Both the position numbers and the translations under genes were made by a program. The notes under the pieces were generated by a model. That model worked only from the letters and a program-made list of their open reading frames with translations, did no database searches and had not been told where the DNA came from. From a virus, in IMG/VR virus record IMGVR_UViG_3300043478_000082, positions 507 to 64,506 of that record: a DNA stretch of 64,000 nt; one strand, 5' to 3'. Below, one piece after another: positions 1 to 64,000 of this stretch (the first letter of the stretch is position 1; every line of letters starts with the position of its first letter).

Positions 1-3000
1 ATCGACGCCGAGCTGAGCCTCAACAGCACCAGCGCGCGCGCCGAGCTGCGGAAGTTCCAGGAGGCCGCGAACCGCATCGGTGCCGAGATCGAGCTGGGAC
101 TGAGCGACAAGTCGAAGTCCGAGTTGAAGGCGCAGCTCGCCGCCATCGACGAGCAGATCGACGACATCGACGCCGTTGTCGGCATCGAGCTGTCACCGGG
201 CGCACGGTCGCAGCTCGAAGCGCAGCTCAAGGAGTTGCAGAAGACCGCCGAGCAGTTCAGCGAGATCAAGCTCCAGGCCAGCCTCACCGGCCAGGCCAAC
301 ATCAACGCGGCGCTGAAGCAGATCGAGGAGCAGGTCCGCACGATCGAGTTCCGCCTCGACGCCGACCCCGCGGCCTTGCAGGCGAAGCTCGCCGAGCTGT
401 CCTCGAAGAAGGAGGACATCGAGTTCCAGCTCCGGATCGACGAGAAGTCGCGGGCGATCATGGAGGCGCAGCTCCAGCGCATCGGGATCGAAGACCGCAC
501 GATCGAGATGCGGGCGATCCTCGACGAGAAGCAGGCGCTGGCCCAGCTCCGCGCGTTGCAGAACGTCCAGATCGACCTCGGCCTCAGCACCGATCAGGCG
601 ACCGCCCTGTACGAGTCGTGGAAGGAGCGACTGGAGGCCCAGAAGGTCGAGGCCAGGATCACCGGTGACTTCACCGACTTCAACCTGAGCATCCGCGAGC
701 TGAAGGCGAAGCTCGCGCTAGAGCAGTTCGAGGCGAAGATCGACGCCGACGTGGCGGGGGCGCTGGCGAGCGTCCAGATCCTCGAAGAGGCCATCGCCAA
801 CGACGACTTCTCGATCCCGGTCGACGCCGATCTGACCAAGGCGCGCGCCGCGATCACGTTGTTCCGCGAGATCCAGCAGCACAACGACATCGAGCTGCCG
901 GTGGACATCGACGTCGATGCGCTGGACGCCGCGCTGGCCCGGATGGAGGCGACGGCGGCGGCTGGCGGCGACAAGGCGGGCAGTGCCTTCGGCACGTCGT
1001 TCGGCGGCGGAGCGAACAAGGGCTTCTCGCTCATCCCCGGCCAGATCGCGCAGTGGGCGCCGCTCATCGGCATCGCCCTGGGTCCCGCCGTGCAGGTGCT
1101 GGAGGGTGCGCTCGGCGGTGCCATCCAGGTGGTGTCGTCGGCCTTCTCAGCGCTGGGTGGAGCGGCCGGAGCCGCGGCTCCGATCGTCGCCGGGCTCGGT
1201 GCCGTGATGGGCGCGGTCGTCATCGGCTCGCTCGGCATGGGCAAGGCGATCAAGGCCAGCTCCGAAGCCTTCACCGAGATGGAGGACACGGGCACCGTCA
1301 GCGAGGCGACCTTGAAGAAGGTCGACAAGGCGATGCGCCAACTGACCCCCGCAGCGCGCGGCGTGGCGCAGGAGATCGCCGCGATGCTCCCGCAGTTCCG
1401 GGATCTCCAGAACATCGTGTCCTCCCACCTCTTCGCGGGGATGGGGGCCGAGCTGCACGCGCTCAGCGCGGAGACGATCCCCGACATCGCCGCCTCGCTG
1501 GTGCTGGCGGGCGACAGCGCCAACCGATTCGGCAAGCAGATGCTGGACGCGATCCGCGGCATCGACTTCACCGGCACCTTCGCTGCCATCCAGCCCGCGA
1601 TCGACTCGCTCGGGCGGGCCATCGCCAACGTCGTGCGGGCCATCGAGCCCTTCCTGAAGGCGGCAGCTCCGGCAGCCCGGGAACTGGCGTCATGGATCGA
1701 GGACGCATCCAAGTCGTTCCTCAACATGGTCCGCGCCGGGGCCGGGAGCGGCGCCATCACCAAGTTCCTGCTGGAGGGCGTCGAGAGCCTGAAGGACTGG
1801 GCGCGGCTGGTCGGCGCGGTCGGGGATGCCCTGTTCACCTTGTTCCAGGCGGGCAAGTCCGGCGGCGACGGCATGGTCAAGTCGCTGACCGACATCGTTA
1901 ACAAGTTCGACGCCTGGATGGAGTCGGCCAAGGGTCAGAGGGCTCTCACGGACTTCTTCGCCACCAGCCGTCAGCTCCTCAGTGACCTGGTCCCGCTCTT
2001 CAAGGGCGTGGCGGACGGCATCGGCAGCATCGTGTCGCCAGCCGCAGGGGGCAGTTTCCGGCAGCTCACCACCGGGCTCGGCGACGTCGCGCGGGTGGCG
2101 GGCGAGCTGATCAACGTGTTCAACCGCATGAACATCACGGGGACCGTGGTGTCGGCGTTCGCAGCCTTCGCCCGCGCCCTGGAGCCGATCATCCCGGCGC
2201 TGGATCAGGTGGCCGATGCGATCGCCATCAACCTGGCCTCGGCAGTGCGGCTGCTCAACCCGCTGATCTCGGGACTGGCGAGCGTCATCGGCTTCGTGGC
2301 CGACGCCTTCAACTCGCTGTCCGGCCCAGTGCAGACCGTCGTCCTCGTGCTCGGCACCTTGATCGCCCTGGGGCCGAAGATCGGCAGCGGGCTGAGCAGC
2401 ATCGGCACCGCCTTCACGTCGCTGAAGACGAACATCGACCTCATCCCCACCTCCGCGGGGCTGGCGCGGCTGGCGCTGTCGGAGATCGGCACCGGCATCA
2501 AGAACCTCGACTTCTCGGCCATCGGCGCGGGCGTGAAGAACCTCGGTGAGTCGGTCAGTCAGTTGGCGAAGGGGGTCGGCGCGGCGTCGGGCGTGGCGAT
2601 GGCGTCGGCCCTCGGCATCGCCTTCGGCATCCAGTTGGCCGTCGAGTCCGACAACATCGCCGGGAAGATCCAGGGGATCGGGACGATCATCGCGTCGACC
2701 TTCGCTGCCTTCGCGGCGGGAGGACCCATCCTGGCTGGCATCTCGCTGGCTCTCGGCGGCGTCACCGCGCTGTTCCAGGCCAGCGCGAACGAGGCGAAGA
2801 AGGCCAAGGCCGAGGTCGACGAGTACGTCAACGCGATCGGCGGCATCGGCCCCGCCTTCAACAAGATCAACTTCGTCAAGGAGGTCCTCACCAACCTCCA
2901 GGACGAGCAGGAGTCGACCCGTCAGGGCTTCCTGAAGATGGGCGTCTCCATCGGCGACTGGGCCGCGAACCTCGCCAACGGTGGCAACGCAGCATCCGCC

Positions 3001-5082
3001 ATGATCACGATGCTGGACAAGATCGGCCCCGCCGGGCAGGAGGTGGCGAAGGGGCTGAAGGACGGCTCCGTCTCGGCGTTGGACTTCAACAACGTCCTCC
3101 AGATCGTGGCCGCGGGCGGGACCGGCACGAACGAGGCGCTCGGCCTCACCACCGAGAACATGCACGCCATGATCGACGCCTTCGGGGCGGCGGGCGTCTC
3201 CGGTGACCAGGTCGTCGAGATGTTCGACTTCCTGAGCGACGAGGGCAGTGAGACCAGCAAGGCGATGGCTGAGCTGGTGCTCCGCAACAAGGAGGCCGGG
3301 TCAGCCCTCGAAGACCTGAGCAACAACGGCGACAAGGCCGCCGATGGCCTCGACGCCACCGCCGACGCCAGCGCCAAGGCTGCCGAGCAACTGGTCAAGC
3401 TGAACACAGAACTCTCCAACGCCGATGGGAAGGCGAAGGCCACAGCCGAGGGGTTCGACTCGATCACGGACGCCGTGTTCGGCATCGCCGGTCCGATGAG
3501 CACCGTGGAACGGTCGATGGCTGGGGTCGGCAAGGCAGCCGACGCGGCGGCCGAGGCTTCGGACGCGATGGGCAAGGCCCTCGACACGCTGATCAGCCCG
3601 GCGCTGGATGCCGAGGGGGCGCTGTCGGGCTACCGCGCCGCTGTCGATGACCTCGCCACGTCGCTGAAGGACAACGGCACCTCGCTCGACCTCAACACCG
3701 AGAAGGGCCGCGCCAACCGGGAGCAGATCCGCACCAACATCGAGGCGATCGAGGCATACGGGAAGGCGGCGATCGCGGGCGGTGACGACCAGGCTCACGT
3801 CACGCAGTCGATGGAGGACATGCGAGCCGAGCTGGTCAATCAGGTCGCTGCGTTCACCGGCAGCACGGAAGCGGCTGAGGCATACGTCAACCAGCTCGGA
3901 CTGACCCCGGAGAACATCAGCACCGTCGTCAACACACCAGGGCTCCTGGAAGCCTCGCAGACGATCCTCTCCTACGACAACGACCTCGACGGCATCGACG
4001 ATCGCGTCGACACCGAGTTCTCGGCCACCAACCTCGAAGTGGTCAAGTCGAAGCTCGCCGAGTACGGCGTCGACCTCAGCGGCATCCCTGACGACGTGCT
4101 GACCAAGTTCCTCCAGGAGAACTGGCAGGCCGTCCACGATGCGGCGACGGGCTTGGCGACCGATGCTCAGACGGTCACCGACACGCCTGCCGTGGTGACG
4201 GCGACGTCGGAGGGCTTCCCTGGGGTGACTGATCAGATCGCGGGGGTCGCCAACGGCATGTTCGGCATCGACAGCACCCCGGCCACGGCGACCGTCAACG
4301 CCGAGGGCATCGAGCAGACCAACACCGGCATCGAGGGCGTCGACTCGAACATGAAGGACCTCGACGGCAAGACGGCCAAGCCGCAGGTCGAGCTGACCAA
4401 CAACCTCATCGTGCTGGCCGTGATCGCGACCATCGCAGACCAGGTGAAGAAGCTCGGCGCGATGAAGGCGGCACCCGACGTGACGGTCCCCAACTTCGGC
4501 CTGGTGGTCGGCCAGACCGCCGTGATGATCGCGCTGCTCAACTCGCTCAACACGACGACGGCCAAGCCGCAGGTGTCGGTGCCCGGCTACGGGACCGTCG
4601 CCGGTCAGCTCGCTGCGCTCCTCGCGCTGGTCATCACGCTCGACAACTCCAGCGCCTCGGTGAGCGTGTCGACGCCGGGCCTCAGCACGGCGATCAACGA
4701 CTTCCGTACGTTGCAGAACCTGCTCAACTCGATCAACGGGAAGGTCGTCACGACGACGACGAAGAACATCACGCAGAACATCACCCAGACCATCGGAGGA
4801 GGCATGGCGGGCATGATGATCAACGGTCCGCAGACGCTGAACGTCGGTGAGCGTGGGCTGCGCGAGGCGCTGATCCCGCTCGACTTGCCGCTCAGTCGCG
4901 TCGACCCATCGGTGCGGGCGATGGCCGAGGCGCTGCGCGGAGGTGGTGGCGGTGTCCCCGCGGCTGGCAGCATCGGACGCCAGGTGAACGTCTACAACTC
5001 GATCGAGGTCAACTCCACGTCCGCCGACCCCGTGGCGGTCGCCACGCAGGTCGTCAACCGCGCTGCGGCGATGGCGAACTGA
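1..5082 (+). CDS. Tape measure protein (5' end outside window)
   Basis: Frame is open from base 1 (ATC GAC GCC...) to TGA 5082, >1690 aa. Ala/Gly/Leu-rich amphipathic helical protein directly upstream of the minor tail genes. Confidence 0.9.
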   Translation: MDAELSLNSTSARAELRKFQEAANRIGAEIELGLSDKSKSELKAQLAAIDEQIDDIDAVVGIELSPGARSQLEAQLKELQKTAEQFSEIKLQASLTGQANINAALKQIEEQVRTIEFRLDADPAALQAKLAELSSKKEDIEFQLRIDEKSRAIMEAQLQRIGIEDRTIEMRAILDEKQALAQLRALQNVQIDLGLSTDQATALYESWKERLEAQKVEARITGDFTDFNLSIRELKAKLALEQFEAKIDADVAGALASVQILEEAIANDDFSIPVDADLTKARAAITLFREIQQHNDIELPVDIDVDALDAALARMEATAAAGGDKAGSAFGTSFGGGANKGFSLIPGQIAQWAPLIGIALGPAVQVLEGALGGAIQVVSSAFSALGGAAGAAAPIVAGLGAVMGAVVIGSLGMGKAIKASSEAFTEMEDTGTVSEATLKKVDKAMRQLTPAARGVAQEIAAMLPQFRDLQNIVSSHLFAGMGAELHALSAETIPDIAASLVLAGDSANRFGKQMLDAIRGIDFTGTFAAIQPAIDSLGRAIANVVRAIEPFLKAAAPAARELASWIEDASKSFLNMVRAGAGSGAITKFLLEGVESLKDWARLVGAVGDALFTLFQAGKSGGDGMVKSLTDIVNKFDAWMESAKGQRALTDFFATSRQLLSDLVPLFKGVADGIGSIVSPAAGGSFRQLTTGLGDVARVAGELINVFNRMNITGTVVSAFAAFARALEPIIPALDQVADAIAINLASAVRLLNPLISGLASVIGFVADAFNSLSGPVQTVVLVLGTLIALGPKIGSGLSSIGTAFTSLKTNIDLIPTSAGLARLALSEIGTGIKNLDFSAIGAGVKNLGESVSQLAKGVGAASGVAMASALGIAFGIQLAVESDNIAGKIQGIGTIIASTFAAFAAGGPILAGISLALGGVTALFQASANEAKKAKAEVDEYVNAIGGIGPAFNKINFVKEVLTNLQDEQESTRQGFLKMGVSIGDWAANLANGGNAASAMITMLDKIGPAGQEVAKGLKDGSVSALDFNNVLQIVAAGGTGTNEALGLTTENMHAMIDAFGAAGVSGDQVVEMFDFLSDEGSETSKAMAELVLRNKEAGSALEDLSNNGDKAADGLDATADASAKAAEQLVKLNTELSNADGKAKATAEGFDSITDAVFGIAGPMSTVERSMAGVGKAADAAAEASDAMGKALDTLISPALDAEGALSGYRAAVDDLATSLKDNGTSLDLNTEKGRANREQIRTNIEAIEAYGKAAIAGGDDQAHVTQSMEDMRAELVNQVAAFTGSTEAAEAYVNQLGLTPENISTVVNTPGLLEASQTILSYDNDLDGIDDRVDTEFSATNLEVVKSKLAEYGVDLSGIPDDVLTKFLQENWQAVHDAATGLATDAQTVTDTPAVVTATSEGFPGVTDQIAGVANGMFGIDSTPATATVNAEGIEQTNTGIEGVDSNMKDLDGKTAKPQVELTNNLIVLAVIATIADQVKKLGAMKAAPDVTVPNFGLVVGQTAVMIALLNSLNTTTAKPQVSVPGYGTVAGQLAALLALVITLDNSSASVSVSTPGLSTAINDFRTLQNLLNSINGKVVTTTTKNITQNITQTIGGGMAGMMINGPQTLNVGERGLREALIPLDLPLSRVDPSVRAMAEALRGGGGGVPAAGSIGRQVNVYNSIEVNSTSADPVAVATQVVNRAAAMAN

Positions 5083-19241: not shown

Positions 19242-19445
19242 TCAACTCGTCCACCCCATCACGATGCGGTAGTTGCGGTGCTTCGTCTCCTCCAGATGAC
19301 GGTCCTCGGATGCGATCGTGTGGAACTGCTCGTCGCACGTCGTGCAGACCGTGTGGTACGGACCCTTTGCCGTCCGGCGAGTGGTGCGCGTCTTCTTGCG
19401 GGGGACGATGCCCAGCGCCTCAGCCTGTTGGTGCGTCATCTTCAT
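19242..19445 (-). CDS. Small protein with C2H2-like Zn finger
   Basis: CTTCDEQF-x8-HLEETKH. Confidence 0.55.
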   Translation of the reverse strand: MKMTHQQAEALGIVPRKKTRTTRRTAKGPYHTVCTTCDEQFHTIASEDRHLEETKHRNYRIVMGWTS

Positions 19446-46693: not shown

Positions 46694-48069
46694 TGGACCT
46701 CGATGCGTATCGCACCTGGACCCCTGCCGCGCAGCAGCGAGCACTGTCCGCGCTTCAGGCTCGCACCAACGACACCTGGCGTCCCTTTTACTGCCCGCGG
46801 GCTGGCTGCGACGGAAACCCACACGACACCTGGGAGTGGAACCACGCCCGTGCCGACCAGCATCCACCCAAGGACCTCGACTGGCTCACCTGGCTGATCA
46901 CCAGCGGGCGAGGGGCGGGCAAGACGCGCACCGGGGCCGAGCTGACCCACCAGATGACCGAGGTGACCGGGCGCCTGGCCGTCATCGCAGCGACCGGCGC
47001 CGACGTGCGTGACACCTGCCTGGAGGGCGAGAGCGGCATCCTCACCATCGCCCGCCCCGACCGGCGCCCCAAGTACGAGCCGTCGAAGCGCCGCCTGACA
47101 TGGCCCAACGGCTGCGTCGGCACCACGTTCTCGGCCGAGGAGCCCGACCGCCTGCGCGGCCCCGAGCACGGATACGCCTGGTGGGACGAGCCCGCTCACG
47201 CGCCGCTGTGTCAGGACGTCTGGGACAACCTCCTGTTCGGCCTGCGCATCGGCACTCGCCCGCGCACCGTGCTGACGACGACGCCCAAGCCCCGACCTTG
47301 GTTGAAGGGCGTGCTCGCTGACCCGCGCACGCGCCTGACGGTGACGTCGACGTACGCCAACCTGGCGAACCTCGCCCCGACGTACGCCGAGCAGGTGATC
47401 GCCCGCTACGAGGGGACCAGGCTCGGCCGCCAGGAGCTGCACGGCGAGATCCTGGAGGACGTCGAGGGCGCGCTGTGGACGTGGGAGATGATCGAGGCGT
47501 CGCGCGTCGTGCACGCGCCGGAGCTCGTCAGGGTGGTTGTAGGTGTCGACCCGGCCGGATCGTCGCGAGTGCAAGCCGATGAGACCGGGATCGTCGTCGT
47601 CGGGCGTGACGCCAGCGGCGAGATCTACGTCATCGCCGACCGCTCCGGCCACTACACGCCGCTCGGCTGGGCGACCGCCGCCCACCACGCCTACGAGGAC
47701 TACGACGCCGACGCCATCGTGGCCGAGGTCAACTTCGGCGCCGACATGGTGGCGTCCACCATCCGTTCCAGCGGCTTCACCGACCGCCTGATCACCGTGC
47801 GCGCTCGTCACGGCAAAGACGCTCGCGCTGAGCCGATCGTCGGCCTGTGGGAGCAGCAGCGAGCGCACATCGTCGGCACGCTGCCCGAGCTGGAGGCGCA
47901 GCTCGTGTCGTGGGTGCCGTACTCCGGCGACCACAGCCCCGACCGCCTCGACGCGATGGTCTACGCCGCCACCATCGTCGCCCACCAGCCGGGTCGGGTC
48001 GAGGTCATCTCGCCGGTCCACATGCAGATCACCACGGGCGGCATCCCAGGACTGAGGAGAGTGCAGTGA
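46693..48069 (+). CDS. terL: Terminase large subunit
   Basis: GRGAGKT Walker A, WWDE Walker B, VGVDP and DRLDA RNase H-like nuclease motifs. Confidence 0.92.
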   Translation: MDLDAYRTWTPAAQQRALSALQARTNDTWRPFYCPRAGCDGNPHDTWEWNHARADQHPPKDLDWLTWLITSGRGAGKTRTGAELTHQMTEVTGRLAVIAATGADVRDTCLEGESGILTIARPDRRPKYEPSKRRLTWPNGCVGTTFSAEEPDRLRGPEHGYAWWDEPAHAPLCQDVWDNLLFGLRIGTRPRTVLTTTPKPRPWLKGVLADPRTRLTVTSTYANLANLAPTYAEQVIARYEGTRLGRQELHGEILEDVEGALWTWEMIEASRVVHAPELVRVVVGVDPAGSSRVQADETGIVVVGRDASGEIYVIADRSGHYTPLGWATAAHHAYEDYDADAIVAEVNFGADMVASTIRSSGFTDRLITVRARHGKDARAEPIVGLWEQQRAHIVGTLPELEAQLVSWVPYSGDHSPDRLDAMVYAATIVAHQPGRVEVISPVHMQITTGGIPGLRRVQ

Positions 48070-49820: not shown

Positions 49821-51599
49821 ATGGCACGGGTGCGTCAACCTGCCCCGACTCCGCCGACCGGGTTCATCGCCTCCGCCGTGCGTCTTCCGACGGCGAGTCG
49901 CAACGTCGCCGGGCGCAGCGAGGGATGGCAGAGCCAGGCGTGGCAGTTCTGGGAGACGGTGGGTGAGCTGCGCGCCGTGAGCGTGTGGATCGGCAACGTC
50001 CTGTCCCGAGCGCGGCTCATCGCGGGCAAGCGTGAGGGCCGGATGATCGTCCCGATGACCGACGCCACCCATCCCGCCACCGAGGCGATGGAGGCTCTCT
50101 ATGGCGGACCGCAGGGCCAGGAGGAGATGCTGCGTCAGTACGGCATCCACGACACCGTCGCCGGAGAGCTCTACATCGTCAACACGGCCTCCGATGACCG
50201 CTGGTACTCGCTGGCCGCTGGCAAGGTCACGCAACTCCCCGGCGGCAAGCTCCAGGCCGACTTCGGCACCGAGGGTGGCGCGAAGCCGCTGAAGCCCGCC
50301 GACTTGGTGATCCGCCAGTGGACGCCGCACCCGCGAGACCCGTCCCGCGCCGACAGTCCGGTGCGCTCTAACCTCACCACGCTGGCTCAGATCACCGGCT
50401 ACGACCAGCACATCTCGGCGCAGATCCGCTCACGCCTGGCGGGCGCCGGGATCCTGTTCCTGTCCAACGAGGTGTCGTTCCCGGTGCCGGAAGGCGTCGA
50501 CCCCGGTGCGTCGCAGGCGCAGATCTTCATGGCCCTGCTGGGCGAAGCGATGATGACGCCGATCCAGGACCCCAGCGATCCCAGCGCGCTGGTGCCGATC
50601 GTGGCGATGGTGCCGACCGAGAGCCTGGGCAAGAACGAGCACCTGAAGTTCTGGACCGACCTCGACAACGCGGTGGTCGAGATGCGCGACGCCGGGATCA
50701 AGCGCCTGGCGCTCGGCATGGACGTGCCGCCCGAGGTGCTCCTGGGCGTGGCCGACGCCAACCACTGGAACGCCTGGCTGTCCGAGGAGAGCGCGGTCAA
50801 GGCGCACCTGGAGCCGCGCCTCGGCAACTTCGCCTGGGGCCTGTCGAACCAGTACCTCCGCCCGGCGATCAAGGGCCGCATCCCGGCCAGCGAGAGCCTG
50901 GAGGACTACTACGTCCTGGCCGACACGTCGTCGATCCGTCTGCGCCCGAACCGGTCGTCGGAAGCCATCGAGCTCTACAACCTCGGTGAGTTGTCCGGCG
51001 AGGCGCTGCGGCGTGAGACCGGCTTCCAGCCCGAAGACAGCCCCGACAGCACCGAGTTCGAGCGTTGGCTGCTGAAGCGGGTGTCGACCGGCGCCGTCAG
51101 CCCCGAGCAGACCGCCGCCGCGCTGAAGCTCCTCGGCATCGACCTCGGTCCGATCAACGTCAGCACCGGGCAGCAGCAGCCCGACCACACCCGCCTGGAC
51201 ACGAAGCCCGCGCTGGAGCAGCGCAACGTGCCCGACATCGCTGAGTCGCAGGAACGAGCGATGAGCCAGGACGGTCTGGCGGCAGCCTGCGACGTGTTGG
51301 TCTTCCGAGCGCTGGAGCGGGCAGGGAACCGCCTCCGCAACGGTCATCCGCGCACCGACACCTCGATGATGGCGGCGGTCGACGTCTACCGGACGCTGGG
51401 TGGCGAGGCCGACAACCTGCTCGCCGGGGCGTGGGACTGTGCCGCCGAGGTGCTCGGGCCGTACACCGCGGACACGCTGGGCGTGACCGACACCCTCGAC
51501 TTCTACGTGCGCGGCCTGCTCAGCTCGCACCGCCCGCACAGCTCTGTCGTGCTCAGTGCGCTCCTGGCCTCGCGGCCGACTGCGCTGGCGGTGACGTGA
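49821..51599 (+). CDS. Portal protein
   Basis: 592 aa after the terminase; WQSQAWQFWETVGEL, RLAGAGILF, LALGMDVPPEVLLG....NHW.AW motifs of actinophage portals. Confidence 0.85.
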   Translation: MARVRQPAPTPPTGFIASAVRLPTASRNVAGRSEGWQSQAWQFWETVGELRAVSVWIGNVLSRARLIAGKREGRMIVPMTDATHPATEAMEALYGGPQGQEEMLRQYGIHDTVAGELYIVNTASDDRWYSLAAGKVTQLPGGKLQADFGTEGGAKPLKPADLVIRQWTPHPRDPSRADSPVRSNLTTLAQITGYDQHISAQIRSRLAGAGILFLSNEVSFPVPEGVDPGASQAQIFMALLGEAMMTPIQDPSDPSALVPIVAMVPTESLGKNEHLKFWTDLDNAVVEMRDAGIKRLALGMDVPPEVLLGVADANHWNAWLSEESAVKAHLEPRLGNFAWGLSNQYLRPAIKGRIPASESLEDYYVLADTSSIRLRPNRSSEAIELYNLGELSGEALRRETGFQPEDSPDSTEFERWLLKRVSTGAVSPEQTAAALKLLGIDLGPINVSTGQQQPDHTRLDTKPALEQRNVPDIAESQERAMSQDGLAAACDVLVFRALERAGNRLRNGHPRTDTSMMAAVDVYRTLGGEADNLLAGAWDCAAEVLGPYTADTLGVTDTLDFYVRGLLSSHRPHSSVVLSALLASRPTALAVT

Positions 51600-51600
51600 C

Positions 51601-53712
51601 ATGGCGAGCATCACTGAGCTCACAGCGCTGATCGACGACGAGATCACCGCCGCGCTGGCGGAGCCGGATCACTCGATCCGCATGACCATGCTGCGCGACG
51701 CCGGGGCTCGGGCCTTCGCCCGTGCGTACGAGGACCTCAATGGTGACCCCGAGGGCTACGAGCAGGCGCGCTCCGAATTCGTGAACACACTGACCAGCGC
51801 GGCGGGGATGACCTTCCCGGACGGCACGGAAGCGCAGAACACACGCGTCACGCACGTCTTCGCCACCGCCGCGGCCAACGGAGCCATCGTGGCGGCAGCG
51901 TCGCCGGGCACCGAGTTCGAGTGGATCACCAAGCTCGACGACGACGTGCGCGAGACGCACCGTCCGCTGCATGGCGAGGTGCGGGCTGCGGGGACGCCGT
52001 TCCTCGTCGCCGGAGTGCCGCTGCTCTACCCCGGCCAGCCGGTCGGTCCGCCCGAGGTCTGGATCAACTGTCGCTGCGTGCTGTCGGCGAGCGCGTCGAT
52101 TACGTCGGGAGGCGACATGGGCGACCACAACCACTCCTGGACACCAGGCGATCACTCGCACTCGTTCACCGAGCGGATCGCGGCACACTCGCATGGGTTT
52201 GCGCCGAGCCACGTCCACAGCGTCACGCTCGCCGCGTGCGCTTGCGGATGCGGTGGCGTCGAGGGCTCGTGCGAGGAGCCCGATGATCTGGAGGCGGCGG
52301 TCAGCAACGAGCCGTGGTCGAACTGGAGCGCCGCTGACTACAACGTCCAGCAGTGGCACCGCGCCTGCCTCATCCATCTGCACTCGGGGCCGCCGACGTC
52401 CAAGAGCGAGTGCAAGCTCCCAGTGCGGACGCCGACCGGCGCGTTGAACAGAAACGGCGTCCACGCGGCCGCTGCTGCGCTTGCCGGAGCGCGCGGCGGC
52501 GTCGATGCTCCCTCCGAGGACAAGGCCAAGGCGAGGCGCGCCCTCCTGGCCCTGTACCGACGCATCGGTGACGATCCGCCCGACAGCCTGCGCGCTGATG
52601 GGTCGGAAGCTGCCGAGCTCACGGCGTGGGCTCCGTCGACCTCCCCGCCCGGCACCCACGACGCGCCAGGATGGGTCACCAACCCGCGCGAGACGCAGCG
52701 TCTGCGGACCTACTGGACCAAGGGCGCGGGGGCGGCGAAGATCCGCTGGGGAACACCCAACGACCTCACCCGCTGCCATCAGCACCTCCAGAAGTTCGTG
52801 GGACCGTTCGCCTGGGCGACGTGCCAGAACATGCACAAGGAGGCGCTCGGCTTCTGGAACCCCGAGAGCAACCCCGGTCACCGCAGCCGCCGTGCCGATG
52901 GTGACCTCATCGACGACGAGACATTCGACATGGTCACCGCGGCCTTCATCGCTGCGGCCGAACTGGAGGACCCGATGGAGACGATGATGCTGGCACCGCC
53001 TGCCGAGTGGTTCGCCAACCCCGGCTTCGATGCCCCCACCCCGCTGACGATCACCAGCGACGGTCGCGTGCTCGGGCACCTGGCTTCCTGGGACACCTGC
53101 CACGTCGGCATCACCGGCGACTGCGTGAAGCCGCCACGCTCGAATACGAACTACGCCCACTTCCGCACGGGCGAGGTCGAGACGCGCGAGGGGACGCTGG
53201 TCGCCGTGGGGCAGATCACGATGGACACCGGGCACGCCGGAGCCGAGGAGGGTCCGCAGGCCGCGGTCAGCCACTACGACAACACCGGGACCGGCGTCGC
53301 TGACGTGTCGGCGGGCGAGGACGACCACGGCATCTGGGTCGCTGGCGCCATGCGTCCGGGCGTGTCCGAGCAGCAGATGTACGTGCTGAAGGCGACCGGC
53401 GCCCTGTCCGGAGACTGGCGCCGCATCGGCGGGAACCTGGAGCTGGTGGCGGCGCTCGCCGTCAATGTGCCGGGCTTCCCGATCCCGCGTGTCGAGCTGG
53501 CGGCGTCGGTGGGGCGCACGATCTCCCTCACCGCCGCCGCGGTCGTCACCATCGACCCGAACGCCCTCGACGCCGACCGCGTCGCCGTCGCGGTCCTGGC
53601 GGCGATGGATCAGCGTAAGGCCGACGAGGCTCGCCGCCAGCGCGCCGCGCTGCTGACCACCGAGATCACCGAGCTGCGGGTGAGTGCGCTCGTGGCCGCA
53701 GTGGAAGGCTGA
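51601..53712 (+). CDS. MuF-like head morphogenesis / capsid maturation protease fusion
   Basis: W.TKLDDDVRETH...PF.V....L.YPG......INCRC (MuF); C-terminal GRVLGHLASWDTCH...SGDWR protease-like region. Confidence 0.8.
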   Translation: MASITELTALIDDEITAALAEPDHSIRMTMLRDAGARAFARAYEDLNGDPEGYEQARSEFVNTLTSAAGMTFPDGTEAQNTRVTHVFATAAANGAIVAAASPGTEFEWITKLDDDVRETHRPLHGEVRAAGTPFLVAGVPLLYPGQPVGPPEVWINCRCVLSASASITSGGDMGDHNHSWTPGDHSHSFTERIAAHSHGFAPSHVHSVTLAACACGCGGVEGSCEEPDDLEAAVSNEPWSNWSAADYNVQQWHRACLIHLHSGPPTSKSECKLPVRTPTGALNRNGVHAAAAALAGARGGVDAPSEDKAKARRALLALYRRIGDDPPDSLRADGSEAAELTAWAPSTSPPGTHDAPGWVTNPRETQRLRTYWTKGAGAAKIRWGTPNDLTRCHQHLQKFVGPFAWATCQNMHKEALGFWNPESNPGHRSRRADGDLIDDETFDMVTAAFIAAAELEDPMETMMLAPPAEWFANPGFDAPTPLTITSDGRVLGHLASWDTCHVGITGDCVKPPRSNTNYAHFRTGEVETREGTLVAVGQITMDTGHAGAEEGPQAAVSHYDNTGTGVADVSAGEDDHGIWVAGAMRPGVSEQQMYVLKATGALSGDWRRIGGNLELVAALAVNVPGFPIPRVELAASVGRTISLTAAAVVTIDPNALDADRVAVAVLAAMDQRKADEARRQRAALLTTEITELRVSALVAAVEG

Positions 53713-53717
53713 GAGCC

Positions 53718-54104
53718 ATGAGCGATCCCGAGCCGCTGGCGGCCGACCCGCCCGCCAAGACCAACATCACCGACACGCCCGGCGACGGCACGACGATCAC
53801 CACGCTCGTCAGCACGCACGACCGCGGCTCACTGGAGTGGAACGAGCGCCGCGGCGACGGCGATCCGTTCGGTCCAGAAGGTCCGCCGGTCGTCGTCGTA
53901 CCGGCGACCGGCGCCACCGCAGGGACGCCCGGTACGTGGACGCCATCGGGCTCCACCCCGCCCGCCACTCCCGCGGCAACCGCGGTCACCGCATCGCCCG
54001 CCACTGCGTGGACCACCGGTCAGTACGTCCAGACGGGCCTCGCCGGAGCGCCAGGTCACACCTACTGGGACGGCGACTCCTGGAACGTCGGAGCTGCGCC
54101 CTGA
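53718..54104 (+). CDS. Probable head decoration protein
   Basis: C-terminal ~65 aa module shared with the major tail protein. Confidence 0.55.
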   Translation: MSDPEPLAADPPAKTNITDTPGDGTTITTLVSTHDRGSLEWNERRGDGDPFGPEGPPVVVVPATGATAGTPGTWTPSGSTPPATPAATAVTASPATAWTTGQYVQTGLAGAPGHTYWDGDSWNVGAAP

Positions 54105-54241: not shown

Positions 54242-54401
54242 TCGCTGGCGGTACATCACAGCGGGTGTAGGGTCACGCCCCAAGACGACCGAGGGACCCC
54301 GTTGGAGCGAAGCTCCGGGGAACCGCCGAGCCGCATAGCGGCTCAGGCGTGGTTGGCGAACGATCTCAACGACCCATCCCTCTCGACCTGCGGAGGCTGT
54401 G

Positions 54402-56075
54402 ATGTACGAGCTGCCCGAGGACCTCACCGCACTGTCGGCCGAGGAACTGCAAGCGCTGATCGACGGGGGCCTCGATGCACTCCGCGCGCTGAACGTCACG
54501 GCCGAGTCCTCGGAGGAGGACATCGCTGAGGGCGAGCGGATCGTTGGCCTCCTGAAGAACGTCCAGAAGCAGATGCCGAAGACGGTGGCTGTCCAGGAGA
54601 AGCGTCGTGAGCGCGCCACTGCTCTCCAGCAGGCGATCGTCGACTCCACGCCTGAGGAGCCAGAGACGCCCGAGGAGCCCGATGCTCCCGAGACCCCGGA
54701 GACGCCGGAGCCCGCCGAGGCCGTCGTCACGCCAGACGAGGTGATCACGCCTGAGCTGGTCACCGCGGCTGGCTCACCGGCACGACGCGCCGCGGCCAAC
54801 GCGGCGCCGGTCACCGTCCCGGCCCGCACGACCGAGGCCGTCAGCCTCATCGCCGCGGCTGACGTGCCCGGCTTCTCCACCGGCGCCCCGCTCGATGGGC
54901 TCGGCGCTGTCGTTGCGGCACTCCTCAACCGTGCTCGCGGACTGCCGACGACCCGCATCGGTGGCGCCGATGGCGTGCGCATGAACTACGGCGCCGCGAT
55001 CATCCGCAAGAACGGCTACGGCGACCTCAGCCAGGCAGTCGAGCACGACGACCAGGCGATGATCTGGCGAGCGGGCGACGAGCGCCGCCTCCCCGGCAAC
55101 AGCCTCATCGCCGCGGGAGGTTGGTGCGCTCCGTCCGAGACGCTCTACGACCTCTGTCAGTTCGAGACGGTCGACGGCATCCTCAGCATCCCCGAGACGC
55201 AGATCACCCGTGGTGGCATCCGCTGGACGCAGGGTCCGGACTTCAGCGACATCTACGAGGCGTGCGGCTTCTTCCTCACCGAGGCCGAGGCGATCGCCGG
55301 GACGGCGCAGAAGGACTGCTGCATGGTCGAGTGCCCGCCGTTCGACGAGATCCGTCTCGACGCCATCGGCCTGTGCGTGAAGACCCCGCTGCTGACGAAC
55401 GCCGCCTACCCCGAGCTGGTCCGCCGGTTCATGGAGGGCTCGCTGGTCGCCCACCAGCACAAGGTCAACAAGTACATCATCGACAACATCGCCGCCGCGG
55501 CTGGCACGCCGTCCGTCCTCCAGGACAACGGCTCGCTGGAGCAGACGCTGGGCCAGGTCGAGATGCTCGCCCTCGGGATGCGCTACCGCTACCGCATGAG
55601 CCAGACGCAGTCGATCGAGATCGTCGCCCCGTTCTGGCTGCGGACGCTGCTCCGCATGGACATCGCCCGCAAGTCGGCGGTCAACCCGACCGAGGTGTCG
55701 GACGAGCGGATCAACGCCTGGTTCGCCTCGCGCAACATCAGCGTCCAGTGGGTCTACGACTTCCAGGACCTCCAGTTCCCGGCGCCGCCCGCTCCCGCAT
55801 GCATCCCGACCGTCCCGGCCACCGTGACGATCCTGATGTACCCGGCCGGGACCTGGATCAAGGGCTCCCTCGATGTCATCAACATCGACGCCGTCTACGA
55901 CTCCACGGGCCTGTCGCAGAACGTGTTCACCGCCCTGTTCATGGAGGAGGGCATCCTCGCTGTCCAGCGGTGCACCCACACCTGCGCCTACACGATCCCG
56001 ACCTGCGTCACCGGCCGTACGGGCGCTCAGGATCTCACCGAGTGCTACCTGTTCGGGGTCGACGCGACGCCGTGA
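54402..56075 (+). CDS. Major capsid protein with N-terminal scaffold-like region
   Basis: Coiled-coil/acidic N-terminus; LIAAGGWCAPSETLYD...P.....RGGI motif of mycobacteriophage cluster-B-like capsids. Confidence 0.85.
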   Translation: MYELPEDLTALSAEELQALIDGGLDALRALNVTAESSEEDIAEGERIVGLLKNVQKQMPKTVAVQEKRRERATALQQAIVDSTPEEPETPEEPDAPETPETPEPAEAVVTPDEVITPELVTAAGSPARRAAANAAPVTVPARTTEAVSLIAAADVPGFSTGAPLDGLGAVVAALLNRARGLPTTRIGGADGVRMNYGAAIIRKNGYGDLSQAVEHDDQAMIWRAGDERRLPGNSLIAAGGWCAPSETLYDLCQFETVDGILSIPETQITRGGIRWTQGPDFSDIYEACGFFLTEAEAIAGTAQKDCCMVECPPFDEIRLDAIGLCVKTPLLTNAAYPELVRRFMEGSLVAHQHKVNKYIIDNIAAAAGTPSVLQDNGSLEQTLGQVEMLALGMRYRYRMSQTQSIEIVAPFWLRTLLRMDIARKSAVNPTEVSDERINAWFASRNISVQWVYDFQDLQFPAPPAPACIPTVPATVTILMYPAGTWIKGSLDVINIDAVYDSTGLSQNVFTALFMEEGILAVQRCTHTCAYTIPTCVTGRTGAQDLTECYLFGVDATP

Positions 56076-56113: not shown

Positions 56114-56902
56114 ATGGCCGAAATGATCGCAGGAGCACGGTGGTTCCTGGACGTCCCAGCGCCGCCTGTCCTCGGTGGCGGTGTTCTCTCGGTGGCTCGC
56201 GTCATCGACAATCCTCCGACGCACGCCCTGATGGGCTCCGAGTACACCACCGACGCCTGTGCCACCGCGCAGGAGTGGCTCGAAGACTGGTGCGACATGA
56301 CACCGGCTACCCAGAAGGTGTTCGACACCGGCTGGGAGATCGTGCAGGGTGACCCGTTCGTCGTCTACACGGGCCTGTCGTGCATGTTGAGCACGCTCGA
56401 CGATGCCAGGGGCCGTGTCTTGGATCGCTTCGCCTACGCCGAGGGGCGTTCGGTGGACAAGAACATCGCCGCCTGGCTCAGCGCCCACGCCGAGGTCGAC
56501 TTGGGCGGGCCGTTCCAGATCAACGAGGCCATCGGGATCGCCGAGGCGTACGCGGCCACGATCTACGGCGGCGTGCCGACGCTCCTCATCCCTCGTCAGT
56601 TCGTGGCCTGCGCGTGCGGGTACGGCATCCGCTCGAACCTCGACGGGTCGCTCTCGACGTGCCAGGGCGCGCAGGTCGCCAACATCACGGCACCGATCAC
56701 CCTCCCGGTCGCGCCCGACGCCACCGGGACGATGTTCGTGACCGGCCAGATCACGCTGCTGCGAGGCGACCTCGGCTCGTACTCGACGCCACAGCAGGTC
56801 CTCGACGACGGGGACTTCGAGCCGCCGCGTGCGCTGGCCGAGCGCATCTACGTCCCACTCATCGAATGCCTGACCGCCAAGGTCCAGGTGACGTGCTCAT
56901 GA
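56114..56902 (+). CDS. Second capsid-associated protein (possible pentamer-specific capsid protein)
   Basis: 262 aa between the capsid and major tail genes, as in cluster-B-like phages. Assignment is by synteny. Confidence 0.5.
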   Translation: MAEMIAGARWFLDVPAPPVLGGGVLSVARVIDNPPTHALMGSEYTTDACATAQEWLEDWCDMTPATQKVFDTGWEIVQGDPFVVYTGLSCMLSTLDDARGRVLDRFAYAEGRSVDKNIAAWLSAHAEVDLGGPFQINEAIGIAEAYAATIYGGVPTLLIPRQFVACACGYGIRSNLDGSLSTCQGAQVANITAPITLPVAPDATGTMFVTGQITLLRGDLGSYSTPQQVLDDGDFEPPRALAERIYVPLIECLTAKVQVTCS

Positions 56903-56918: not shown

Positions 56919-57836
56919 ATGGCGAATCCCAAGTCCTTCCCCCTGGTGCGTGGCCGGGTCATGCGCGTGACCAAGGTCGACGGCTGCTGCGCCCCGGTCT
57001 ACGGCCCGGACAACCAGGTCGTCACCGAGGGCTTCGTCAGCGTCGCCCTGACGGCGAACGTCAACGAGCCCGAAGAGATCAGCGTCGTCAACGCCGCGGG
57101 CAAGACCTGCGTGCGTGACCCAGGGTGTCCCGAGTTCCAGGGCTACAGCGCCGAGATCACGTTCTGCGAGGTGTCGCCGTGCCTGTTCTCGCTCGTCACC
57201 GGCCAGCCCAGCGTCACCGACTCGGAGGGCGAGATCATCGGGTTCCGCATGAACACCGGGATCTCGACCTGTGACTCGGGCTTCGCGCTGGAAGTGTGGA
57301 TGGGCGTCCCCGGCGTGGCTTGCTCGGGTGATGCAGGGGCGTTCGGCTACCTGCTCCTGCCCTGCCTCCAGGGCGGCGTGGTCGGCGACTTCACGATCGA
57401 GAACGCGGCGGTCACGTTCACGGTGACCGGTGCGGCCACCAAGGACGGGAACGGCTGGGGCGTCGGTCCGTACGACGTCGTCGAGGCTGCGGGAGGCGGT
57501 GCCGCTGGCCCGCTCCCCGATCCGCTCGATCCGGACGACCACCTCTACGTCATCTTCACGACCGTCGCTCCGCCCGACGAGACGGACGGCTGCGTGGAGC
57601 TCACGCAGGGCGGCACGACCCCGGCCACCGGAGCCACGGCAGGCATCCCAGGCACCTGGACGCCGAGCGGATCAGCGCCTCCGGCCAATGCCGCCGCAGC
57701 CACGTCGGCAGGCGTCACTGCCTCACCCGCCACGCTGTGGACGGTGGGTCAGTACGTCCAGGGCTCGACCGCCGGAACGGGCGGCGAGATGTACTGGGAC
57801 GGCACTGCCTGGACCGCGGGAAAAGCCCCGGCCTGA
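56919..57836 (+). CDS. Major tail (tube) protein
   Basis: GRVMRVTK.D.C, FVSVAL, F.LEVW, GYLLLP, FTIENAAVTF.VTG pattern. Confidence 0.85.
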   Translation: MANPKSFPLVRGRVMRVTKVDGCCAPVYGPDNQVVTEGFVSVALTANVNEPEEISVVNAAGKTCVRDPGCPEFQGYSAEITFCEVSPCLFSLVTGQPSVTDSEGEIIGFRMNTGISTCDSGFALEVWMGVPGVACSGDAGAFGYLLLPCLQGGVVGDFTIENAAVTFTVTGAATKDGNGWGVGPYDVVEAAGGGAAGPLPDPLDPDDHLYVIFTTVAPPDETDGCVELTQGGTTPATGATAGIPGTWTPSGSAPPANAAAATSAGVTASPATLWTVGQYVQGSTAGTGGEMYWDGTAWTAGKAPA

Positions 57837-58480
57837 TCGTCGTTCCGACGGTCACGAACGGCCCTTGGTGTCAGACCTTCGGGCAGCCGATCGTCGACCT
57901 GGAGATCGTCGGGACAGGCTTCAACCCCACCACCAAGGTCTGCATCGCCACGGCTCAGACTGCGACCGAGTGGACCCTGGCCGAGTTCGGCCAGACCACC
58001 TACGTCGACCCCGAGCACGTGCGGCTCAGCGCGTCGCCGAGCGACCCGAACTACCCGGCGGCACCGCCTGGGTCGGGCGCGATCATGACGCTGCTCGTCA
58101 ACAACGGGCCGATGACCTTCAATCCGCAGGAGCCGCCGCTGTACGTCGCGGCGCAGTCCTTGACGCTGGTGGTCGAGCCGTCGTTCACGGCCATCACCAC
58201 CCCGGCTGGGGGCACGATGGCGTGGGCCGACAACGGCACCGTGCAGTGGAGTGGCGCGGATCTGTTCAGCTTCGGGCGTCTCACGGTCATCTGGCCCGAC
58301 GATTCCGAGCACGTCGTGGCGAACCCGAACCAGCCGTCCGGCGACGGCGCGACGCTGACGTTCACCTCGATCCAGACCTTCAAGCCGCCCGCGCCGGGCG
58401 TGGTTCGCTTCCGGTTCGAGAACCAGGCGAACAACTGCTTCGCCGAGGCCGTCAGCGTCCCCTCGCTCACGCTGACCTGA
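57818..58480 (+). CDS. -1 frameshift extension of the major tail protein (IPT/Ig-like domains)
   Basis: G GGA AAA slippery heptamer at 57818-57824; the -1 frame stays open for 218 codons and has no convincing own start. Confidence 0.7.
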   Translation, partial: GKSPGLIVVPTVTNGPWCQTFGQPIVDLEIVGTGFNPTTKVCIATAQTATEWTLAEFGQTTYVDPEHVRLSASPSDPNYPAAPPGSGAIMTLLVNNGPMTFNPQEPPLYVAAQSLTLVVEPSFTAITTPAGGTMAWADNGTVQWSGADLFSFGRLTVIWPDDSEHVVANPNQPSGDGATLTFTSIQTFKPPAPGVVRFRFENQANNCFAEAVSVPSLTLT

Positions 58481-58493
58481 CTGAGGAGGGCCG

Positions 58494-58868
58494 ATGAGCA
58501 GTCCTGGCCGCTACGACCTCCACCTCTACCGCGGTGACACGCGGGCGTGGCGCTTCCGGCTGTGGCAGGACGCCGCCCAGTCTGTGCCCTTCGACCTCAC
58601 CGGCATCGACGTCGCCGCGCAGATTCGCGGTGGCAACTGCAACGTCACGCCGATCAACCTGCTGCTCGTGGTCACGCTGCCCAACATCATCGACGCCGTG
58701 CTGTCGGCCGCCGACGCCGAGCGAGCGCCCGCCAACGGCCGCTGGGACCTGCAACTCACGAATCCGACCGACGTCCCACCGCGCGTCCGCACCGTGCTCG
58801 CCGGGCGCGTTCTCACCACCGATGACGTCACCGACGTCACGGGCGTGGTCGCGCTGGTGACGGCATGA
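58494..58868 (+). CDS. Virion-associated protein (BppU N-terminal-like)
   Basis: [12 protein letters not shown]...RWDLQLT...RTVLAG.V....DVT; RBS GAGGAGG. Confidence 0.6.
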
Positions 58869-61902: not shown

Positions 61903-61915
61903 AAGGATGTGAGTC

Positions 61916-62719
61916 ATGAGCGACCCCGGTCCCACTCCGGCGGCTCCGTGCATCCCCTGGGAGCTGGACGCCACCTGCTGCTCCTGCGGCGACGAGTGGG
62001 AGAACTACGAGGACGGCGTCAAGGAACGCGCCTCTGCGCTCGCCTGGTCGACGCTGCGTGCGCTGACCGGCGGCCAGGTCGGCAACTGCCCGGTGCTCAT
62101 GCGTCCGTGTCTCGGCCCGCCGTGCTCGGTGTGCAACCCCGATGGCGTCTGGATGCGTCCGTTCATCCGCGACGGCAACTGGTTCAACGCGGTCTGCGGC
62201 ATCGACCCATGCTCGTGCGAACGGCTGTGCGAGATCGTCACCCCCGGTCCGATCGCCGAGGTGCTCTCCGTGGTGCTCGACGGCGAGGACATCCCGCTGG
62301 ACAATTTCAGGGTCGACAACGGGAACCACCTGGTCAGGCAAGACGGCGAGTGCTGGCCGAGCTGCCAGAACATGAACCTCCCGCTTGGCGAGCCGGGCAC
62401 CCTCGGCATCACCTACGTCCCGGGCATCAAGCCCGACGCGGCCGGTCTGTGGGCGGCGGGGACGCTGGCGTGCGAGTACGCCAAGGCGTGCAACGGGAGC
62501 AAGGGGTGCAGACTGCCCTCGGCAGTCACGTCCATCTCACGCCAGGGCGTCAGCTTCAACCTGTCGTCGACGATGTTCCCCGATGGCATGACCGGGATCC
62601 GCGAGGTCGACGCCTACCTCACGGCGCTCAACCCGGCTGGACTGCGGGTGCCGCCGATGGTGTGGAGCCCGGACCTCCAAGCGACGCGCCACCGCTACAC
62701 GACGTGGGTCGGCACGTGA
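61916..62719 (+). CDS. Head-to-tail adaptor
   Basis: A...A...LRALTG, LACEYAKAC....CRLP..VTSISRQGVS, TGIREVD..L...NP motifs. Confidence 0.75.
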   Translation: MSDPGPTPAAPCIPWELDATCCSCGDEWENYEDGVKERASALAWSTLRALTGGQVGNCPVLMRPCLGPPCSVCNPDGVWMRPFIRDGNWFNAVCGIDPCSCERLCEIVTPGPIAEVLSVVLDGEDIPLDNFRVDNGNHLVRQDGECWPSCQNMNLPLGEPGTLGITYVPGIKPDAAGLWAAGTLACEYAKACNGSKGCRLPSAVTSISRQGVSFNLSSTMFPDGMTGIREVDAYLTALNPAGLRVPPMVWSPDLQATRHRYTTWVGT

Positions 62720-63213
62720 CGATCATCGAGCCCATCGCTCCGCCCGCCATCGCCGTCGCGCTGCTGGATCTGACCGAGTGCGTCTGCACTGAGCTCGCCA
62801 CGACGGGAGGAGGTCCGATGTGCTGGTGCGGCTTGTACCCCGGCCTCACGGTGTCGTGGGACTACTGCGGCGAGTGTGACGGCGACAAGTGCGGGATGGC
62901 CTACGTCCGCCTGGCCGGAGTCACGCCCTACGATCTGTTCCCGTTCCCGGTGGTGGACGACCGCTGCGTCAAGCCGCTGGCGTGGGCGATCGAGGTCGGC
63001 GCGCTGCGCTGCTTCCCCACGCCCGGTGACGGCAGCCTGGTCGACCCGAACACGATGGCCGAGGTGGCGATGGTCCAGGCGCTCGACGCGCAGGCTGTGT
63101 GGCGAGCGCTGAAGTGCTGCGGCATCGACCTGGCCGTCGAGGCATGGCGCCCGCTCGGTCCGCTCGGTGGCTGCGTCGGCGGCGCCTGGACTGCGTTCGC
63201 GGCGATCGACTGA
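62716..63213 (+). CDS. Tail completion/terminator-like protein, Cys-rich
   Basis: GTGA overlap; GP.GGCVGG.W motif; synteny. Confidence 0.55.
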   Translation: MTIIEPIAPPAIAVALLDLTECVCTELATTGGGPMCWCGLYPGLTVSWDYCGECDGDKCGMAYVRLAGVTPYDLFPFPVVDDRCVKPLAWAIEVGALRCFPTPGDGSLVDPNTMAEVAMVQALDAQAVWRALKCCGIDLAVEAWRPLGPLGGCVGGAWTAFAAID

Positions 63214-63761
63214 TGGCCTCGGGCGTCAAGGTCACGGTCACCGACCGGGCGATCATCTCAGCGCTCAACACGCCGGGGGGCGACGTCTACCGCTGGCGCG
63301 ACGAGGTGGGTCGCGAGGTCAAGGCCATCGCGGAGGAGATCGCACCGATCAACAACCCGATGAACGCCGAGCACCGCGGCGGTGAGGTCGGCACGTACCA
63401 GGCGTCGTTTGGCTTCGACCGCCGGGGCAGCTCGGGCCACCACGTCGTCGCTCGCGTCACCAACAGCTCCGATCACGCCGACATCGTCGAGTTCGGGCGC
63501 AGCTCCAGCAGCCAGATGCAGATCTTCTCGTGGACGGAGTTCGGCGGAGCGATCGTGCGCGTCGGCGGGCCGGGCAGCATCTCCAAGTTCCTGGAGGGCG
63601 CACGGACGGTCCAACGCCGCCAGGCACTGGAGGCATTCGCCAGCCACCTGCCGGAGAAGATCGGCAAGTCGACCCAAGCCAGGGAGGGCTACCACGTCCT
63701 CTCGCGGGCCCTCGTCGGTGCGATGGGAGCCCAGGGGATCTCAGCACGCGTTGACGCCTGA
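63213..63761 (+). CDS. Neck protein (HK97 gp10-like)
   Basis: A...AP.....G.Y.ASF....V.NSSDHA.IVEFG pattern. Confidence 0.6.
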   Translation: MASGVKVTVTDRAIISALNTPGGDVYRWRDEVGREVKAIAEEIAPINNPMNAEHRGGEVGTYQASFGFDRRGSSGHHVVARVTNSSDHADIVEFGRSSSSQMQIFSWTEFGGAIVRVGGPGSISKFLEGARTVQRRQALEAFASHLPEKIGKSTQAREGYHVLSRALVGAMGAQGISARVDA

Positions 63762-63777
63762 CGTAACGTGCCACGCC

Positions 63778-64000
63778 ATGAGGCAGTTCGGTACAGCGGC
63801 TCGGCGTGGTGTTGCGGCGGTCAACAACCCCGTCGACATCACCTTCCAGTGGGAGAAGTCTGAGAACGACTGGGTCGACATGGTCGCCCACCCCCCGACC
63901 ACCGGGCAGATCGCCCTCTTCCTCAGTCACCAGGGCACCGGAGCAGCGGGCGTGCGAGCCATGTTCGAGCTGTTGCAGGCGGTGATGGAGAGGTCGGACT
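63778..64000 (+). CDS. Probable tail assembly chaperone (3' end outside window)
   Basis: ATG 63778 is open to the window end (MRQFGTAARRG...HPPTTGQIAL); position precedes the tape measure gene. Confidence 0.55.
   Translation, partial: MRQFGTAARRGVAAVNNPVDITFQWEKSENDWVDMVAHPPTTGQIALFLSHQGTGAAGVRAMFELLQAVMERSD

Follow-up and report, generated by a model that had tools for sequence, protein, structure and literature searches.

The tail tube gene and its open −1 frame

We analysed a window of 64,000 nucleotides (nt), positions 507 to 64,506 of the IMG/VR virus record IMGVR_UViG_3300043478_000082, which is almost the whole of the 64,764-bp record (rated 100% complete). The subject is the 3′ end of the gene of the major tail (tube) protein, together with the open reading frame (ORF) that continues beyond it in the −1 frame. 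The tail gene ends with GCG GGA AAA GCC CCG GCC TGA, and the slippery heptamer G_GGA_AAA contained in it is in register with the ORF starting at 56919. The −1 frame reads GKSPGLIVVPT... at this point; it is open from 57332 to 58477 and has its stop at 58478-58480. A −1 shift at the heptamer would join 302 residues of the tail protein to a 218-residue extension, giving a predicted fusion of 520 amino acids (aa) and 53.5 kDa. That the fusion is made, beside the normal subunit, is the reading that we favour below.

The heptamer is a rare sequence in this DNA. GGGAAAA has a single occurrence in the 64-kb window, both strands counted, and only four XXXYYYZ heptamers with Y = A or T are found on the + strand. 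The one at 57818 is the sole heptamer of this type inside the zone of ~500 nt in which frames 0 and −1 are both open, and by a rough estimate the probability of an in-frame heptamer within the last 100 nt of the gene by chance is ~0.002. The other heptamers of the A/T type in the window are CCCTTTG at 19363 (+), CCCTTTT at 46783 (+), GGGTTTG at 52195 (+) and GGGTTTC at 46820 (−), and that at 52195 is not in register with the gene at 51601-53712. Apart from that at 57818, the + strand of the window showed no canonical XXXYYYZ heptamer suited to a chaperone frameshift.

The −1 frame downstream of the tail stop is truly coding. Up to ~57800 it is frame 0 that has a high GC content at third codon positions (GC3), 0.88-0.95. 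After the stop, the −1 frame has a GC content by codon position of 0.58/0.53/0.93, a signature matching that of the capsid and tail genes, and the third-position GC of the other two + frames is 0.53-0.58. The extension also shows the third-position bias of T over A that is seen in real + strand genes. Three overlapping ORFs were rejected as composition shadows: those at 57430-58497 (+ strand, GC3 0.53) and 57749-58312 (minus strand, GC3 0.58), and the minus-strand ORF at 58051-58470, whose third positions coincide with those of the real frame, but with a reversed A/T bias.

Initiation signals are missing from the extension. Between GTG 57737 and GTG 58019, that is over 57738-58018, the −1 frame contains no ATG, GTG or TTG and no purine-rich Shine-Dalgarno sequence. 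A start at GTG 57737 would overlap the tail gene by 100 nt and would also be without a Shine-Dalgarno sequence, and GTG 58019 lies 61 codons inside clearly coding sequence. Both flanking genes have such a sequence 5-7 nt before their ATG: GAGGAG, at 7 nt, for the tail gene and GAGGAGGG for the 124-aa gene that follows. The heptamer in X_XXY_YYZ register, the −1 frame open to 58480 and the lack of a convincing ribosome-binding site or start had all been claimed in an original prediction made from the letters of this stretch, and all three claims hold.

The frame break is also found in other assemblies. The Logan assembly of what is probably the source run, made independently, matches the whole stretch letter for letter, and Logan contigs from two other studies (runs X2 and X3) bridge 57780-57932 and 57673-57907 with one or two substitutions, no indel and the heptamer present. 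A 6.6-kb contig from yet another run, called L002 here, has the same letters at 57816-57870. Since the independent contigs and L002 agree, an assembly error is excluded.

Selection on the two frames

L002, which comes from another sample, has ~90% nt identity to the window and is collinear with it (262-aa gene, tail gene, extension, 124-aa gene, collagen fibre). Its heptamer, stop and downstream hairpin are identical to those of the window, and its extension ORF has stayed open, the one length difference being an indel of 6 nt that keeps the frame. From GTG 57737 to the tail stop the two sequences differ at five positions, all of them third positions of frame 0, which makes five synonymous and no non-synonymous changes in frame 0, and none and five, respectively, in frame −1. 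This pattern indicates that there is no protein constraint on frame −1 in this part, and therefore that a start at 57737 is unsupported. After the stop, the extension has 0.095 non-synonymous (dN) and 0.205 synonymous (dS) substitutions per site, with a ratio (omega) of 0.46; omega is 0.03 in the core of the tail gene, at a similar dS. The selection signature switches frame at the heptamer site, and the −1 frame is under purifying selection only downstream of it. As judged from these substitutions, the extension is a real, fast-evolving coding region, as expected of an exposed accessory domain.

We also compared 16 further IMG/VR relatives of the tail protein (38-82% aa identity), which have no GGGAAAN near the gene end and no coding −1 ORF. 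The closest relatives without an extension end in ...AGVAP*, and the window protein ends in ...AGKAPA*. Neither the heptamer nor the start-less ORF was met without the other: the heptamer is kept in L002 and in the X2 and X3 contigs, within one shallow lineage, and is absent from the 16 relatives that lack the ORF. The sequence downstream of the tail gene varies widely among the relatives, which marks this place as a recombination hot spot.

The hairpin downstream of the heptamer

A candidate stimulatory hairpin starts 5 nt after the heptamer. It is an interrupted stem of 13 bp: 9 bp that take in the TGA (57834-57842 with 57846-57854, loop UUC) and, across a 5-nt bulge, four further base pairs (57830-57833 with 57860-57863). 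Its folding energy is −20.3 kcal/mol, with a z-score of −2.51, and two of 200 shuffled sequences fold as well. The fold of the whole 120 nt downstream is not better than that of shuffles (z −0.39), and the local hairpin alone stands out. The smaller hairpin originally placed at 57838-57850 is present, but it is the tip of this longer stem.

No substitution separates the window from L002 between 57816 and 57870, where the dS of ~0.2 of the coding sequence on either side would predict ~2-3. The deficit faintly suggests that the frameshift cassette is under additional constraint, but by itself it does not reach significance.

A modular C-terminus in the tail tube protein

The tail tube protein, of 305 aa and 30.7 kDa (GC3 of its gene 0.88), consists of a core at about residues 1-230, a linker rich in Ala, Gly, Pro and Thr, and a C-terminal module of ~60 aa with the motif YWDGTAW. 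Its homologues are annotated as major tail protein in phages of Microbacterium, Mycobacterium and Gordonia. Among the relatives the core of the tube is kept and the C-terminus is modular, with a module of ~60 aa and a YWDG.AW motif in many of them. In place of the YWDGTAW module, the tail protein of L012 (3001-3945) carries a genuine IPT/TIG domain in frame (E 9e-14), and those of L018 (3001-3939), L016 and L014 have in-frame PKD-like domains. On the evidence of these sequences, the C-terminus of the tube protein is a swap site for decoration domains in this group, and the in-frame TIG and PKD domains at the equivalent position make a C-terminal add-on a habit of the family. The phage of the window would add one more C-terminal decoration, this time out of frame.

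The small module of the tail gene (57620-57833) has a second copy in the window, at 53898-54101, which is the end of the ORF at 53718-54104. In L004 a copy at 1984-2151 forms the C-terminus of a 619-aa ORF (295-2154), at the major capsid position just upstream of the homologue of the 262-aa gene (g262). Matches to the module at the equivalent position are also present in L007, L008, L011, L012 and L015. Being found in the ORF at 53718-54104 and in the L004 ORF as well as in the tail gene, the module is common to head-associated and tail proteins. It has no Pfam family, and a pattern search of IMG/VR for further gene ends of the form YWDG..AW...GCGGGAAAAG gave 0 matches.

The nature of the extension

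Homologues of the extension were searched for in phage GenBank (tblastn), IMG/VR, JGI metagenome contigs, a collection with one genome per prokaryotic species, 5.8 billion proteins and, by phmmer, 1.84 billion representatives; the only real one was that of L002. Three other phmmer matches are giant adhesins of the RTX/LapA type, with 6-8 bits per repeat (Ig-like repeats). Their whole-protein E-values are inflated, because they contain 13-16 near-identical repeats, and we kept them as a weak lead only. The extension had no match among PHROGs families or PDB sequence profiles and, in both the window and the L002 copies, no Pfam match at E ≤ 10, TIG included. The IPT-like segment claimed by the original prediction is accordingly unconfirmed at the family level.

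Alignment of the extension with the bona fide TIG domain of L012 by hhalign gave a probability of 0.2. Taken with the missing Pfam match, this is why we do not file the extension as TIG, but only as possibly TIG-like. Its feature neighbours in the ESM Atlas are mostly IPT/TIG clusters, and a shape search of the same resource gave template modelling scores (TM) below 0.5. The AlphaFold2 models are all-beta, with a predicted local distance difference test score (pLDDT) of 44.7 without an alignment and 50.2 with an alignment of two rows. They divide the extension into two predicted beta-rich domains, about residues 20-89 and 109-206 when numbered from 57836, and the C-terminal one superposes on generic Ig-like sandwiches with Z 5.5-7.4, a level that the tool calls common. 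The weak leads (adhesin repeats, Atlas neighbours, models and superposition) agree with each other, and on them we call the extension beta-rich, with probably two Ig-like domains; its assignment to Ig/IPT is only a lead.

Genome context

The features of the locus and of the structural operon are listed in Table 1. The source is an uncultured soil phage of high-GC bacteria; the closest cultured phages have Microbacterium (Gillianvirus, clusters EC/EG), Mycobacterium and Gordonia as hosts, and share ~65-67% nt identity over part of the tail gene. The tape measure gene lies at the other end of the window, which shows that the structural operon continues across the record junction. Along the operon it is ~6 kb past the tail tube gene, beyond four more genes and the junction, and in relatives the neighbour of the tape measure gene is a separate chaperone gene.

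Two genes after the tail tube gene there is a collagen fibre gene, an unusual position; similar proteins are encoded in L002, L003 and L010. The genes from 60760 to the end of the record, a stretch that takes in 61909-63999, have little or no family assignment.

Table 1 Features of the tail locus and of the structural genes around it
Feature	Position	Strand	Remarks
Portal	49821-51599	+	phrog_776
MuF/protease fusion	51601-53712	+	
128-aa ORF	53718-54104	+	
Major capsid protein	54399-56075	+	phrog_777
262-aa protein (g262)	56114-56902	+	phrog_779
Major tail (tube) protein gene	56919-57836	+	phrog_792, E 2e-89
Slippery heptamer G_GGA_AAA	57818-57824	+	X_XXY_YYZ register, three codons ahead of the stop
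−1 frame extension	57824-58480	+	218 codons and stop, 23.0 kDa
Candidate stimulatory hairpin	57830-57863	+	Folding energy compared with shuffles
Frame-0 stop TGA of the tail gene	57834-57836	+	Inside the 5′ arm of the hairpin; overlapped by CTG 57833-57835 as CTGA
Next gene, 124 aa	58494-58868	+	phrog_1084; strong Shine-Dalgarno sequence GAGGAGGG at 58483-58490
Collagen-repeat tail fibre, 632 aa	58865-60763	+	Pfam Collagen, E 6.5e-36
Tape measure gene	124-5082		1652 aa or more; 5′ end possibly outside the window

Proposed mechanism

We think it likely that −1 programmed frameshifting at the heptamer makes the 520-aa fusion beside the 30.7-kDa subunit. A tube mixed from 305-aa and ~520-aa subunits was what the original prediction proposed, and this proposal is supported by the register of the heptamer and its single occurrence in the window, the coding character of the −1 frame, the lack of a start, a candidate hairpin at a suitable distance, the co-occurrence of heptamer and ORF, and the relatives with TIG or PKD domains. 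In this mechanism the majority of the ribosomes would read GGA AAA GCC CCG GCC and stop at the TGA, releasing the 305-aa tube subunit. We infer that a minority would slip with GGA and AAA in the P and A sites, while the mRNA is held by the hairpin 5 nt downstream. The tRNA-Gly and tRNA-Lys would then move back by one base to pair with GGG AAA, and AGC at 57824 would be read next. The shifted ribosomes would continue through ...TAGK-SPGLIVVPT... to 58480, and make the 53.5-kDa subunit.

The long subunit would thus be a complete tube protein with a beta-rich, probably two-domain, C-terminal surface decoration of 218 residues. Both forms would co-assemble in the virion, and the tube would bear sub-stoichiometric domains that face outwards. 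The most likely role of these domains would be weak binding to the cell envelope, as has been proposed for the Ig-like or carbohydrate-binding decorations of other siphophage tails.

As to its origin, the extension may be a lineage-specific two-domain module without a family, which landed out of frame behind the tube gene in the recombination hot spot, and was rescued by a new heptamer (AGVAP* to AGKAPA*). We hold this history tentatively, and would rate its chances at a little under even.

Several points weigh against frameshifting and against the role given to its product. The phage is uncultured, and the case is known from its sequence; the public runs listed as holding that sequence include no RNA run. 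The hairpin is moderately better than shuffles, and as its sequence is the same in the sole relative it gives no covariation signal. The heptamer is conserved in one shallow lineage (the window, L002 and the short contigs, at ~90% identity), so its co-occurrence with the ORF counts as a single evolutionary event. The extension has no recognisable family, its models are of low confidence and its dN/dS of 0.46 is relaxed, and the decoration role is argued by analogy. Finally, CTG 57833 overlaps the stop as CTGA, which is the geometry of coupled re-initiation, and a non-canonical independent start is possible.

Alternative explanations

This last point leads to the alternative that survives best, which we nevertheless consider unlikely: the extension would be a separate protein, made by termination-reinitiation at CTG 57833 or ATC 57836, or from a start at GTG 57737, and the heptamer would be coincidental. 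The CTGA overlap is shaped like the common ATGA and GTGA coupled starts, but CTG starts are very rare in bacteria, and no Shine-Dalgarno sequence precedes any of the candidate starts, whereas the neighbouring genes have strong ones. The gene caller used on the source record did give a 247-aa protein from GTG 57737; this start is contradicted by the substitutions, which upstream of the stop fit frame 0 (five synonymous, none non-synonymous) and not frame −1 (none and five). In L002 the caller found only an internal GTG, which cuts 40% off the clearly coding region. Separate small genes are to be expected downstream of the tail gene, where the genome is mosaic, but the only GGGAAAA of the window would then lie 10 nt upstream, and in register, by an improbable coincidence.

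The extension could also be a silent remnant, that is, a module that was inserted behind the tail gene, has since been deprived of its start and is now untranslated. Its sole homologue in L002, the lack of a start and of a ribosome-binding site, and the relaxed dN/dS (0.46, against 0.03 in the tail core) would all suit a remnant. It is difficult to reconcile with these sequences in other respects: a frame of 214 codons is intact in two genomes that have diverged to a dS of 0.2, the single indel between them (6 nt) preserves the frame, dN/dS is clearly under 1 and GC3 is fully maintained at 0.93. Moreover, it is rare for a phage to retain 650 nt of dead sequence within a structural operon. We regard a remnant as quite improbable.

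An error of sequencing or assembly in the A-run, with a continuous ORF of 520 codons as the true gene, could be suspected from the position of the break beside a short homopolymer (AAAA) and from the origin of the record in a metagenome assembly, but it is hardly conceivable when the Logan assembly of the source run is identical, contigs of two other studies have no indel and L002 has the same letters.

Relation to known recoding systems

Major tail proteins in two forms, made by frameshifting, are documented for SPP1, for Listeria phages and for the lactococcal 936 phages with TpeX (PMC5009743, PMC4759559, PMC6669499). The original prediction had cited SPP1 and the Listeria phages as precedents, in agreement with these papers (PMC5009743, PMC6669499). 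In a limited literature search we found no mention of a tail-gene frameshift of this kind in papers on actinobacteriophages.

The system nearest in architecture and size is 936 TpeX, but the heptamer described here is of the canonical −1 type, typical of chaperone genes. In the 936 phages (Skunavirus), a +1 shift at the 'shifty stop' CCC.UAG joins the 33-kDa major tail protein (MTP) to TpeX, of 22.6 kDa; decoration of the tail was shown by Western blot and immuno-electron microscopy, and the extension is thought to bind carbohydrate (PMC4759559, PMC6669499). As in these phages, a start-less ORF directly follows the major tail gene and would be fused with it through recoding at the stop codon. 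The two parts have nearly the same sizes in both systems (33 and 22.6 kDa in the 936 phages, 30.7 and 23.0 kDa in the window), the long forms measure 470-530 aa, and the shift follows an existing C-terminal add-on domain of the MTP. In both cases only part of the group has the extension, which is variable and presumed to bind the host surface. The differences are the −1 shift at X_XXY_YYZ with a hairpin instead of +1, the lack of sequence similarity, the other phylum of the host and, for the present case, an evidence base of sequence data.

In SPP1 (gp17.1/gp17.1*) and in the Listeria phages PSA, A118 and A500 (Tsh) the shifts are also +1 (PMC5009743, PMC6669499). There too, a short and a C-terminally extended tube protein come from one gene, with the frameshift near its 3′ end, and the extension, an Ig-like or adhesin domain, is dispensable for tube formation (PMC5009743, PMC6669499). 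Unlike the −1 shift that would add 218 aa here, these are +1 shifts, and the SPP1 extension is shorter (~100 aa, 9 kDa). According to the review literature, a phage may arrive at an Ig-like extension through a +1 shift, a −1 shift or an in-frame fusion, and which of these it uses seems to be a matter of chance (PMC5009743, PMC4759559, PMC6669499).

For −1 shifts, Lactobacillus phage A2 is cited as using them in the genes of its major virion proteins (in PMC5009743 and PMC5221750, which refer to the A2 work). What the two share is a −1 slip close to the 3′ end of a gene for a major virion protein, from which a second, longer product results; they are unlike in slippery sequence, in host (Firmicutes for A2) and in extension. 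The second A2 case is reportedly the major tail gene, orf10.

The G/GT chaperone frameshift of the λ type is said to use G_GGA_AAG or G_GGA_AAA, and so shares the mechanism and the heptamer type, near the end of the upstream ORF, with the case proposed here. In contrast, the G/GT pair is the immediate upstream neighbour of the tape measure gene, and the proteins that it encodes are absent from the virion. As the upstream ORF in the window encodes the tube protein, the tape measure gene is distant and relatives have a separate chaperone gene, this is not a classical G/GT pair.

Significance

The locus is very probably a well-supported new example of a trick known from other phages, without a new mechanism. 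If the fusion is real, the automatic annotation is wrong at this locus both in the phage of the window and in its relative: one caller gave the 247-aa ORF, which overlaps the tail gene by 100 nt, and another a 127-aa fragment. The tail would then carry a variable surface module, which may contribute to host adsorption. Tail decorations made by frameshifting, known so far mainly from phages of Firmicutes and mostly with +1 shifts, would extend to a soil phage of high-GC hosts with a canonical −1 site.

Together with its close relatives that lack the module, the phage offers a clean pair for asking how recoding sites arise. If the rescue of an out-of-frame module by a new heptamer is the true history, the locus would capture, at a young and datable stage, the chance gain of frameshift expression by promiscuous decoration domains that the Fraser-Davidson idea supposes, and would be the first predicted −1 tube extension in the phrog_792 group of actinophage-like phages (mycobacteriophage cluster B, Microbacterium EC/EG-like).

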